From Escherichia phage vB_EcoM_YN3: 64,000 bases of DNA. Both the position numbers and the translations under genes were made by a program. The notes beneath the pieces are model-generated. The model did no database searches. It saw nothing but the letters and a program-made list of their open reading frames with translations, and was not told the origin of the DNA. Each line of letters starts with the position of its first letter. The stretch's first letter is position 1. Below are positions 45,410 to 51,046 of the stretch, piece after piece. The stretch lies in sequence record PV763136.1; one strand, written 5' to 3'.

Positions 45410-48400
45410 TTAACGAGAAAAGGTTGCGTAGGCTTCTAGACGATACTGCTGGTCACCAGGGAACATAACACCTATAGAGGCTGTCCCTAGAATCCTGCCT
45501 TCCTTTCCAGACTCCATTCTGAACCCTACCCATCCTGAACTCCTTGCAGCCTCGATGTTGTCGCTATACCCGAAAGTGGCAAGATCGTCAACACCAGCCC
45601 CAAACAGCAACTGAAGCTGACTTCTCGGAAGCCCTATAATTTCAGGAATATACGCACCAAAGTACACCATCTGCCCTACCTTAGGACCGCTGCCGTACTC
45701 CATCGGTTTGCTTGTAGAGAAAGTCTTCATACCAGAAGTACCTGCCGGATTAGGGTATGCCCCGTTTGTTGCTGTACCTATCCACATTCTCCACTGTGGT
45801 GCCATCTGTTTGACAGTAAAAGATGTTGAAGACGTTTTGCGCCCTGCATCATCAGTAACTACAAACGTTATAGTGACATTACCAGTAGCTTTAAATGTTA
45901 CCAGTCCTGTGGTGGCATCCACTGTTGCAATGTTGGTATTACTACTTTCCCAAGTCTTTCTAATCCCGGCTACGTTGGAAGGGGTAATAGAAGGTTCCTG
46001 CATCTGCAGTTTACCACCAACAATCCCTATGCCGTTGCCCGGATTATACAGCACACCAACCTCGTCTATAATGTTCCCTGCTTTGAGACTATACTTCCTT
46101 GAGAAGTTGTAGGTTCCGTTATAAGTGTGTGTCCCTGAGAAGGTGACATCTGCCTTCCCGTAAGAGATGCAAACCAAAGCATACTTCCTGTCAGGCAACG
46201 TTGCTCCAGTCTCCGGATGAGTTTTACCCACCTGAAACACACTCGGGTCAGTGGAGTCGTGGCTATCACTAACTGAGCTTGGACCACCCATCAGTTGTGA
46301 CAAGCAATTCCTTACCCATGTCCAGTTATTATCGCTGGAGAAGTCCACAGTCAAATCAAACACAACCCACTCATTCGGCTTCCACACAGGTGTTGTAATG
46401 GACTTGCCTACACCACCCCCTTGGAGTGTTGCTGACTGTTCAGTGATCAGGGCCGCATAGGCCAGAGTTCCTAAACTCAGAGTCTGGCTTGCTGTCCTCA
46501 CTACCTTAGAGTCCGCGTCTGTGAAGTTGTTGATGATCTGGAATGTGCCATAAGTGTTTTTACAGGTAATTCTGGCGTTCAGCGTGTCAATCTTCCTCAC
46601 ATCTGCCATAGCAGCGTTAGACACAGAAAAGTCAGAAGCTTTAGCTGAGTTTGCCGCAACAGCAGGATCAACGTTAAGAGTTGCGTTGAACTGACAAGCA
46701 GGAGTAACCAGCAGCTTGTTATCGCCTATTTGCTTCCATGCAACACTTTGAACAGGAAGATTCCATTTGATACCTGAGAAAACTTTAGCAACCCTTGGAC
46801 CCAAAGCTCCAGTCCTGTTGTCTTTACAGCACATGGACATGGTGATCGTTGACGGGGTAGCCTGACCGAACAGTTGTTGTGCTTTTGCAGAGGACATGGT
46901 GTAGAAATTGTCCCTAACAAACTCATCAGCGGCTAAAGATCCATCAGCCCTCCACCACTGAACCTGATACCCTGTCTTATCCCAGCCACCAACCTGCTTC
47001 AAGTCCTCCCAGGAGATTTCCAGATCCCCGGTGGTAGGATTGATTGCAGCAGTTCCTGGTGTTCCAGATGACCATATTGGAATATCGAACCACGCTGGTT
47101 TAACCGACTGCACTGCGCTGGGACCTATTGCGGCAGCAAGTTGCTGGCCCATCAATACGCGAGCATCTTTCACCAGACCCCACTCGATCATAGACCCAGA
47201 GTAACCTTCTTTCTTGTAGGCTGAGGATCCGTTCAAATGGATGAGTCGGCTTGTGCCAAAGTTATGTGCTCCACCACCGTTGTCGTCTGCAAAATTGGTT
47301 ATGATTCTGTCCCTGATATTTTTCCATGCCCTGCCTCCAATCTCGTAGTCATGGTCATAACATCTTTGCAGTGTTGTCCAGCAAATGATCGCCATCCTTC
47401 TACCATTGCTGAAGCCAAAGGCCTGATCGTTAAGCTCTCTCCACAAGTAGCAGTTGGTGGTCCACATGGCCCTATGAATGTTAAACCAGTTTATAGATTT
47501 GGCTGAGTTGTTCCACTGAGTCCCAGGTAATTCAGGCCATACTGCATTAACCAGCATGTCTTCTGTTCCTGCATCAACCAAGAACCCTCTCACCTTCTTA
47601 CCCATGCCTACCCTATCTTTTGCAATCCAACTGCCAAACAATCTCAGTTTTGGACCGTAGACAACATCTTCCGGATGCTCAAAAGAAATATATTTTAGGT
47701 ATATTGTAGGGTCACCATAGGTGCCATCACAAACAGCTTTGTGCATGTTCTCACCAAGGTCTAGACGAAGTCCTGTTACAACTCTAGACGTGTCGGTGAA
47801 TTTGTCTGTTAAATCAAACTCATACCACCACCAACCTGCACCCAACAATACTTTCTTACAACGCTGTGCATCTGTATCAGATATTCTCTTATCACCTGCA
47901 AAAGGTGAGTCAGCAAACTGATAGTGCAGAGCAACCTCAAAAGGATGTGTGGATGTCCCGTTTTCTGCAAGAACTTGTTTACCTATCAGGTCGCACTTAA
48001 TGATCATCACAACACGTTTGTATCCGTTTGTTACCGGAATTTGCATGGACATGGATGTCCCATCCATGTTTGATCTCAGTGCAGTCATGATGATATAAGG
48101 GTCAACGGCATTGCCCAAAGTCTCAGGACCGGGGATTATCTTATACTTCTTGACCTGCCCCATGATGTAGTCACTTGCGTAAGTTGCCTCATTCAAGCAA
48201 GATCCTCCACCAGGTAACTCACCAGGTCCCCAGAAAAATGCGCCGTAACAGTTGTAGAACCACTTGTTAGGATCGTATTTATTCTTGAAGGTCTGAACCT
48301 CGTTGGCCTGTTTTGTCAAGAAAACCTGCGTGTCTGTGAAGATTGCAGGGTTTACTCTCGCCTGTCTTGGAGGGTAACCTGTAGTTTGGTTAAACCACAA

Positions 48401-51046: not shown

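Follow-up and report, generated by a model that had tools for sequence, protein, structure and literature searches.

A giant terminal protein of the Vequintavirus tail-fiber operon: a candidate accessory adhesin that is often inactivated in deposited genomes

The tail-fiber and baseplate operon of Escherichia phage vB_EcoM_YN3 ends in a giant gene. Selection on this gene, which accounts for 4% of the genome, is strongly purifying, and yet it has been lost in about one in ten deposited isolates. What kind of protein would fit both observations? We addressed this question in a 64,000-nucleotide stretch of the phage's DNA (sequence record PV763136.1), referred to here as the window, where the gene lies at 45410..51046 on the minus strand as an ATG-started open reading frame (ORF) of 1878 codons plus a stop codon, with zero internal stops. 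A model that had seen only the letters and their ORFs (the original prediction) had offered a depolymerase-bearing tailspike, an adhesin-like fiber, or an injected protein as possibilities. We see about an even chance that the protein is a low-copy accessory adhesin of the tail-fiber network, non-essential for infection.

Among intact Vequintavirus alleles, the ratio of nonsynonymous to synonymous substitution (dN/dS) is about 0.08, both for the whole gene and in every segment, and these alleles are under strong purifying selection. Inactivating lesions were nonetheless read from the sequences of nine deposited genomes, at eight sites. Single-nucleotide deletions occur in phages Alma (codon 208) and naswa (codon 762), and a 2-nt deletion in ime (codon 1052). 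Nonsense substitutions are found in nomine (W82amber), phita32 (Q1439ochre, TAA), and both magaca and ECP26 (Y617amber, TAT-to-TAG). Phage V18 has several deletions, one of them of 696 nt, and APECc02 combines a 2956-nt deletion with frameshifts. The genetic backgrounds of magaca and ECP26 differ, and their shared amber codon is set among different flanking nucleotides and joined to different tip alleles; either the mutation recurred or the null allele spread by recombination. In ime, the 40 kb flanking the lesion are intact, with normal gene lengths. When samples of 60 records were matched, the 5.6-kb giant gene had eight split annotations, whereas a control 7.7-kb stretch of four fiber and baseplate genes had an extra feature in no more than two records. 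The nine disrupted genomes indicate that the gene is dispensable for growth on the isolation hosts; it is preferentially lost in culture and maintained in nature. We considered amber suppression, as TAG accounts for three of the four in-frame stops, and rejected the idea because the stop in phita32 is TAA and the window holds no tRNA gene, with no suppressor tRNA gene found there either.

The way in which intact alleles vary is equally uneven along the gene. Synonymous divergence between segments ranges from 0.01 to more than 1.5, which points to mosaic recombination. Within the genus, amino-acid variation is concentrated at residues 951-1123 and, above all, at residues 1751-1878. This C-terminal tip (45413..45796, minus strand), putatively ligand-binding, exists in two allele classes that are only 44-76% identical. 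The second class is the tip of a more distant lineage, and the tip has been exchanged between lineages. Across the family, which includes members down to 40% overall identity, conservation is highest at residues 1-445 and lowest at the C-terminus. A conserved N-terminus and a variable C-terminus match the usual anchor-to-tip gradient of phage fibers and receptor-binding proteins.

The gene itself is not new. Its DNA is 94-96% identical over the full length to more than 100 genomes of Vequintavirus (rV5-like) coliphages, and 107 phage records span at least 80% of it at 88-96% nucleotide identity, which places the window within this genus. Protein identity to the Vequintavirus orthologs is 93-98%, and more than 100 deposited genes are 95-98% identical to this one. 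The rV5 gp27 group, phrog_15684, matches residues 1-1878 (4498 bits), the same synteny as last gene of the tail-fiber/baseplate operon is found in more than 100 Vequintavirus genomes, and phage CarlMeissner has identical neighbors around it. The gene is thus the ortholog of rV5 gp27, which was described as 1878 residues and 208,334 Da, with its Big_2 domain already recorded (Kropinski et al. 2013, Table S3). Between rV5 gp27 and its Vequintavirus orthologs (e.g., Bas48_0041), we found a shared length of 1878 residues, shared neighbors and terminators, and no material difference; the window copy is intact and 99.7% identical to the rV5-type tip allele across the last 289 residues. The CarlMeissner copy, bas48_0041, is annotated as a "lateral tail fiber protein with intimin domain", and other records call the ortholog an "Ig-like domain-containing protein", a "structural protein with Ig domain", or a "hypothetical protein". 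The gene is annotated in more than 100 genomes, and any function ascribed to rV5 gp27 is putative. The present analysis adds an RCC1-like anchor that appears common to several genera, a gene pair formed by a fiber knob and an N-terminal motif, a core that stayed an orphan after exhaustive search, two tip alleles, and the high frequency of natural null alleles.

The descriptive features that the original prediction had read from the letters all held up. The ORF is the longest in the window (1878 residues; the runner-up has 1124), its product is rich in the residues named (G 9.9%, T 8.0%, N 7.1%, and W 3.0%), and it is the last gene before a bidirectional terminator. The C-terminal immunoglobulin-like (Ig-like) domain was right as to kind and roughly as to place: a Big_2 domain (bacterial Ig-like group 2, Pfam PF02368) is found at residues 1683-1733 (45848..46000, minus strand), near the C-terminus and not at the end, as about 145 residues follow it. 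With an E-value of 8.2e-8 and 32.5 bits against a gathering cut-off of 22.8 bits, it is the sole Pfam domain above threshold. Matches to intimin in the PDB (E 0.003) cover 40 residues within this domain.

The remainder of the 208.5-kDa protein (calculated mass; isoelectric point 6.4) had to be approached by profiles and by AlphaFold2 (AF2) models, which were built from alignments of 16 sequences for two overlapping segments, residues 1-1200 and 679-1878. The protein opens with the heptapeptide MLPIPLL (51026..51046, minus strand), a proposed docking peptide. The best-conserved part, residues 1-445 (49712..51046, minus strand), resembles an RCC1-like beta-propeller. A profile of this N-terminal domain built from three genera matches only RCC1-like propellers in the PDB, led by HERC1 (E 2.4e-8) and UVR8 (E 3e-8) and followed by HERC2, RPGR, and RCC2. 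PF25390 is matched by 12 of the 16 family members. Residues 1-197 share 40% identity with the N-terminus of the 891-residue positional ortholog in Phapecoctavirus, the domain aligns throughout with the Seunavirus proteins of 564-567 residues, and both sets of orthologs exceed the Pfam RCC1 cut-off. The AF2 predicted local distance difference test score (pLDDT) for residues 145-435 is 22-36, and propeller blades are not countable from the model; the RCC1-like assignment comes from profiles only.

Following the propeller, residues 446-835 (48542..49711, minus strand) are predicted to form a beta-sandwich, Ig-like region, with AF2 segments at about 450-560 and 740-840 (pLDDT 55-74) and, in homologs, a weak match to PF16403 (Bact_surface_Ig-like) at about 506-558. 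A core restricted to the family comes next, at residues 836-1335 (47042..48541, minus strand). Its alignment contains the invariant motifs GGTN, FTDxQxFLxKQANEVQ, GxEDMLV, SINWFNxHRAMW, and EGYxGSMIEWG. A profile of six diverse members found nothing beyond the core's own family among 1.84 billion representative proteins. There were zero profile matches in the PDB, nothing outside the family in NCBIfam, and no significant match in Pfam even at E-values up to 10, where the window copy gave none and one homolog matched PF24721 at E 0.19. By these searches, the core is a true orphan. Its helical segments, 841-965 and 1126-1331, were modeled by AF2 with low confidence. The beta-sandwich inserted between them at residues 968-1123 (47678..48145, minus strand), possibly related to carbohydrate-binding modules (CBM-like), was modeled with reasonable confidence and coincides with a hot spot of within-genus variation. 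The N-x-H-R-x-x-W motif of the core has some likeness to the NNHSYW motif of alginate lyases; the comparison had no search support and was not used.

A string of predicted Ig-like beta-sandwich domains at residues 1336-1682 (46001..47041, minus strand) leads to Big_2 and the tip, the latter matching the C-terminal part of phrog_215. In fold searches, the only matches were to strings of Ig-like domains, to gp65, the receptor-binding sheath of phage N4, to a tandem of Big_2 and CBM56, and to jelly-rolls of the CBM type. Homolog searches with the full-length protein and with the family alignment found the same 15 family members, and those with the N-terminal 450 residues only fragments. A scan of viral contigs with the C-terminal module found family members only, and the single outside match by tblastn, in Erwinia phage EAP4, amounts to no more than a Big_2 domain. 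Self-BLAST of the giant protein gave no internal repeats. PF26918 is on the precomputed Pfam list of a 96%-identical homolog and may already describe part of the protein.

We compared this anatomy with several familiar classes. A trimerizing shaft, the mark of a classical trimeric tail fiber, was not found; no coiled-coil, collagen, or fiber-shaft family was detected, and the predicted structure consists of discrete sandwiches and a globular core. No beta-helix, pectate-lyase, or glycoside-hydrolase domain, as would be expected of a tailspike depolymerase, was found by Pfam, NCBIfam, PHROGs, PDB profiles, or fold searches, and no profile search gave a glycosidase, lyase, peptidase, or coiled-coil signal. 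The resemblance to intimin and invasin amounts to 22.3 bits for NCBIfam intimin_all against a cut-off of 1400 bits, at residues 1696-1734 only. A Hoc-like decoration protein would not be expected in a fiber operon or with a variable C-terminal domain, and the sole link to that class is the category label of phrog_215.

How might such a protein be attached to the phage? Related genera provide the comparison. The protein in the same terminal slot ranges from 422 to 1976 residues. In Seunavirus (GAP31 and FENT2), it has 564-567 residues, with the propeller and two Big_2 domains; in Phapecoctavirus, 891 residues, with the propeller, Big_2 domains, and further sequence; in Certrevirus CR8, 422 residues with the propeller only, a member of phrog_15692; and in Justusliebigvirus (phi92-like), it is a 942-residue Big_2 protein without a propeller. 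The shorter positional orthologs (422-891 residues) have no counterpart of the 836-1335 core. The families phrog_11922 (GAP31_232, 567 residues; SKA64 and phAPEC8, 891 residues) and phrog_15692 (CR8_034 and W70_106) occupy the same slot after a phrog_4549-type or knob-bearing fiber and resemble the giant protein in their M-x-P-I/F-P/A start, RCC1-like propeller, and, in most, downstream Big_2 domains. However, they are two to four times shorter, without the orphan core, most of the Ig-like string, or the rV5-type tip, and their identity to the giant protein (28-40%) is limited to the propeller.

What unites these terminal genes is their beginning and their neighbor. In Vequintavirus, Seunavirus, Phapecoctavirus, Justusliebigvirus, and Certrevirus, the terminal protein starts with the motif M-[LFY]-P-[IF]-[PA]. 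In all retrieved DNA, the motif is found in 23 of 406 six-frame ORFs of at least 100 residues, and 22 of those 23 are this terminal gene. The gene immediately upstream encodes a fiber in every case. In the window, this fiber is the gp28 ortholog, and its C-terminal knob (approximately the last 105 residues) shares 51% identity with the C-terminal end of a Phapecoctavirus fiber, a collagen-like protein to which it is otherwise unrelated. The knob also ends the fibers of Justusliebigvirus, Seunavirus, Certrevirus CR8, and Klebsiella phage Iguana. Of the seven lineages with the knob that were examined, six also have a terminal protein with the M-x-P-I/F-P/A start, and Henunavirus has neither. From this co-occurrence, we infer that the terminal protein could dock by its N-terminus on the fiber knob; for the giant protein and gp28, such docking is possible, at rather less than an even chance.

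As we picture it, the MLPIPLL peptide and the propeller of about 445 residues would anchor the giant protein to the fiber network, most likely at the C-terminal knob of gp28. The remaining approximately 1,430 residues, with their Ig-like sandwiches, the core with its CBM-like sandwich, Big_2, and the variable tip, would project outward and bind host-surface or environmental glycans weakly and reversibly. This binding may improve adsorption on natural, encapsulated, or O-antigen-bearing hosts, while on laboratory hosts, the protein would be unneeded and easily lost. The analysis shows what the gene is and where it lies in the operon, the Big_2 domain, an RCC1 similarity at profile level, an orphan core, two tip alleles, purifying selection, and recurrent knock-outs in isolates; the protein's presence in the virion, docking site, glycan binding, and copy number are what we infer from these. 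More tentatively still, several genera related to rV5 and phi92 (Vequintavirinae and Stephanstirmvirinae) may share a hitherto unrecognized branched-fiber scheme, in which a non-fibrous, probably monomeric protein plugs its M-x-P-I-P N-terminus, with or without a propeller, into the knob of a trimeric fiber and carries a cargo that ranges from none (422 residues) to that of the 1878-1976-residue proteins, the core possibly being a new glycan-binding or glycan-cleaving fold. If true, the scheme would name candidates for fiber densities that await assignment in phi92-like phages, of which fiber II was left without a gene assignment in the 2026 phi92 structure paper. The 942-residue protein of the JohannJBalmer type, together with the upstream collagen-like knob fiber, is a candidate for the phi92 density that lacks an assignment. 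In the phi92-like JohannJBalmer itself (6343-9171 of the retrieved segment), the protein keeps a MYPIPLF start, has lost the propeller, and matches the N4-gp65-like phrog_15324.

Among the possibilities in the original prediction, the adhesin-like fiber fits best, given Big_2, the further Ig-like sandwiches, at least one CBM-like jelly-roll match, the variable tip, and the tail-fiber operon. The domain searches it proposed returned Big_2 and, at profile level, the RCC1-like propeller, and neither a beta-helix nor a glycoside hydrolase. It had not seen the N-terminal propeller, the pairing with the upstream fiber, or the frequent knock-outs in cultured isolates. Virion membership is suggested by mass spectrometry of rV5, in which gp27 was represented by three peptides, nine spectra, and 3.1% coverage (Kropinski et al. 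2013); the peptides map onto the window protein with one substitution. This evidence is weak. Better, indirect support comes from the propeller-only family, as W70_106 (phrog_15692) is a virion protein with 115 spectra, next to the W70_107 fiber (PMC11370258). Literature searches found no Vequintavirus cryo-electron microscopy structure and no host-range mutations mapped to this gene.

Several observations weigh against the accessory-adhesin reading or parts of it. The rV5 gp27 peptides are non-tryptic or semi-tryptic and low-scoring, and the same list includes the non-structural rIIA. Taken alone, the window protein falls below every Pfam RCC1 threshold (RCC1_2, 13.7 bits against a cut-off of 22 bits). 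Structure prediction in segments, which had also been proposed, yielded beta-sandwich segments, and nothing interpretable for the propeller or for the helices of the core: the models are poor (mean pLDDT 44.8 for residues 1-1200 and 54.4 for 679-1878), the propeller is not seen in them, and the CBM-like match is not assignable to any one stretch of residues. In Klebsiella phage Iguana_ER37, the fiber knob is present and the terminal gene is not, so a knob can do without this partner. The seven N-terminal residues kept in the phi92-like protein could merely reflect the endpoint of a deletion. Finally, some of the frameshifts could be sequencing errors, but the nonsense substitutions and kilobase deletions cannot.

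The other explanations draw on much of the same evidence. The protein could be a virion-borne depolymerase, in which the 836-1335 core would be a catalytic domain of a new kind, with the substrate held by the Ig-like and CBM-like modules. In its favor, invariant acidic, histidine, arginine, and tryptophan residues are found in tight motifs of the core (E1162-D1163, N1189-x-H1191-R1192, E1235, E1280, and E1288), and CBM-like folds usually accompany enzymes. By prediction, the core is helical in part and interrupted by a beta-sandwich, a layout that recalls alpha/alpha-toroid lyases and hydrolases. Other fibers of this phage group bear glycan-active domains (Maffei et al. 2021). However, neither the beta-helix, pectate-lyase, or glycoside-hydrolase domain of the tailspike first suggested nor any enzyme-family match to the poorly modeled 500-residue core was obtained (Pfam at E-values up to 10, NCBIfam, and PDB profiles). 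The core also has no homolog outside the family, and its lack in the shorter positional orthologs makes it look like an add-on and not a conserved function; we regard a depolymerase as unlikely. The same Ig-like domains could instead serve adherence to mucus or debris, displayed by a protein that decorates the capsid or tail in the manner of Hoc, outside the fiber network and held by the C-terminal domain. The C-terminal 290 residues match phrog_215, a "structural protein with Ig domain" in the PHROGs category head and packaging, the fold matches include capsid and tail-tube proteins with Ig-like domains, and the gene is dispensable, as Hoc is; a match of the family profile to a capsid decoration protein in the PDB (E 0.23) is not significant. 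A C-terminal capsid anchor is, however, the opposite of what we observe, with the N-terminus conserved and the C-terminal tip variable. Together with N-terminal families that carry tail annotations (phrog_11922) and a gene that ends the fiber operon, and not the head module, in every genus examined, this makes decoration distinctly improbable.

Dispensability would also suit a protein that is not a stable virion component, whether an assembly scaffold or chaperone for the fiber network or a free surface-binding factor released at lysis. The marginal rV5 mass-spectrometry evidence, found beside non-structural proteins, and a terminator-like hairpin ahead of the gene are consistent with this, but the phrog_15692 propeller-only family is well supported in the W70 virion by its 115 spectra, a 208-kDa multi-Ig protein is unlike known fiber chaperones, and the cluster already has a dedicated fiber-assembly protein. 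We consider a role outside the virion very improbable. For a protein ejected into the host with the DNA, the injected protein of the original prediction, only the large size and late expression speak. The extracellular type of architecture (Ig-like and CBM-like sandwiches and a propeller), the lack of any enzymatic, membrane-active, or polymerase domain in our searches, and the place of the gene in a fiber operon, dispensable in culture, leave hardly any room for ejection.

An accessory adhesin would have parallels among better-characterized phages. Lambda Stf is frameshifted in the laboratory strain lambda PaPa, and the L-shaped fibers of T5 are made of pb1; both are dispensable side fibers. 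The giant protein is like them in being a late fiber-module protein, strongly conserved in nature and repeatedly inactivated in viable cultured stocks. The analogy is functional, as there is no sequence or fold relationship, and Stf and pb1 are trimeric fibers attached directly to the tail, whereas here we find a predicted propeller and Ig-like modules, all globular. For the proposed docking, gp38 of T2/T6-type phages, which sits on the tip of the gp37 fiber, and gp66 of G7C, which sits on gp63.1, offer a model of a downstream-encoded protein that docks by its N-terminus on a fiber and supplies specificity. The giant protein, for which docking is a proposal, differs from both in its size of 208 kDa and its domain composition. 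T4 Hoc, the C-terminal domain of lambda gpV, and N4 gp65 (the class of Fraser et al. 2006) share with it the Ig-like folds and a presumed accessory carbohydrate binding, but here the Ig-like modules are only part of a far larger protein with a predicted propeller anchor and an orphan core.

The genomic surroundings bear on how the gene is expressed. Upstream of it, on the same strand, are genes for tail-fiber and baseplate proteins, and the operon also encodes the fiber-assembly protein mentioned above. Downstream, a bidirectional intrinsic terminator at 45373..45394, AAAGGGGCC-GTTT-GGCCCCTTT, closes the late operon. This G+C-rich hairpin of 9 bp, with T-runs on both strands, lies between the stop codon of the giant gene and the convergent plus-strand ORF 45162-45362, and it corresponds to the published rV5 terminators t026 and t027 (Kropinski et al. 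2013, Table S4). A second, terminator-like hairpin separates gp28 from the giant gene at 51066..51087 on the minus strand, GACCGCTCC-TGAC-GGGGCGGTT followed by TTTCTTAT. It is t028, between rV5 genes 28 and 27 (Kropinski et al. 2013, Table S4). As it lies only about 20 nt before the start codon, the giant gene must be expressed by read-through, which probably keeps expression low through attenuation. A sigma-70-like promoter match at 51120-51148 on the minus strand lies upstream of this hairpin and would not bypass it.

The gp28 ortholog (51095..52840, minus strand) is a protein of 581 residues predicted to form a baseplate-attached trimeric fiber (phrog_4549 tail fiber, E 6e-250). Its residues 8-325 match a fiber chain in the solved baseplate of phiTE (PDB 9cuy_g, E 6e-77). 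The conserved knob proposed as the docking site comprises residues 477-581 (51098..51412, minus strand). As PDB entries 9cuy and 9mjn both match the N-terminal 325 residues, the baseplate attachment of the rV5-type fiber could be homology-modeled. In precomputed Pfam results, PF26208 and PF26209 (Phage_phiTE_241_N and _C) match a gp28 ortholog. In Iguana_ER37, an opposite-strand endonuclease gene stands directly after the gp28-like fiber, which looks like a natural loss of the whole terminal gene.

Among candidates for phage therapy and biocontrol, Vequintavirus phages are in wide use for their broad host range, and the genes behind their several fiber sets are still being assigned (Maffei et al. 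2021). If propagated on laboratory strains, stocks may differ unnoticed in an adhesin of possible relevance on natural hosts or in the gut. The pairing of knob and terminal protein provides a concrete, testable assembly hypothesis, for which the natural null alleles are ready-made controls.

Some minor observations were made along the way. Three tandem paralogous small ORFs of 264 nt lie at about 41100-41900 of the window, by homology to segment 7472-8261 of a relative, in the convergent early/middle block downstream of the terminator; in CarlMeissner and ime, they are hypothetical proteins. Across this region, 15 to 20 GenBank records labeled "Campylobacter phage" (MG0656xx, host Campylobacter jejuni) share 91-99% identity with Vequintavirus genomes of E. 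coli, and their host labels look doubtful. A 318-residue partial protein labeled Eggerthella lenta, from a 955-bp contig, matches a portion of the giant protein's N-terminus at 100% identity, and the contig is probably phage contamination of a bacterial assembly.

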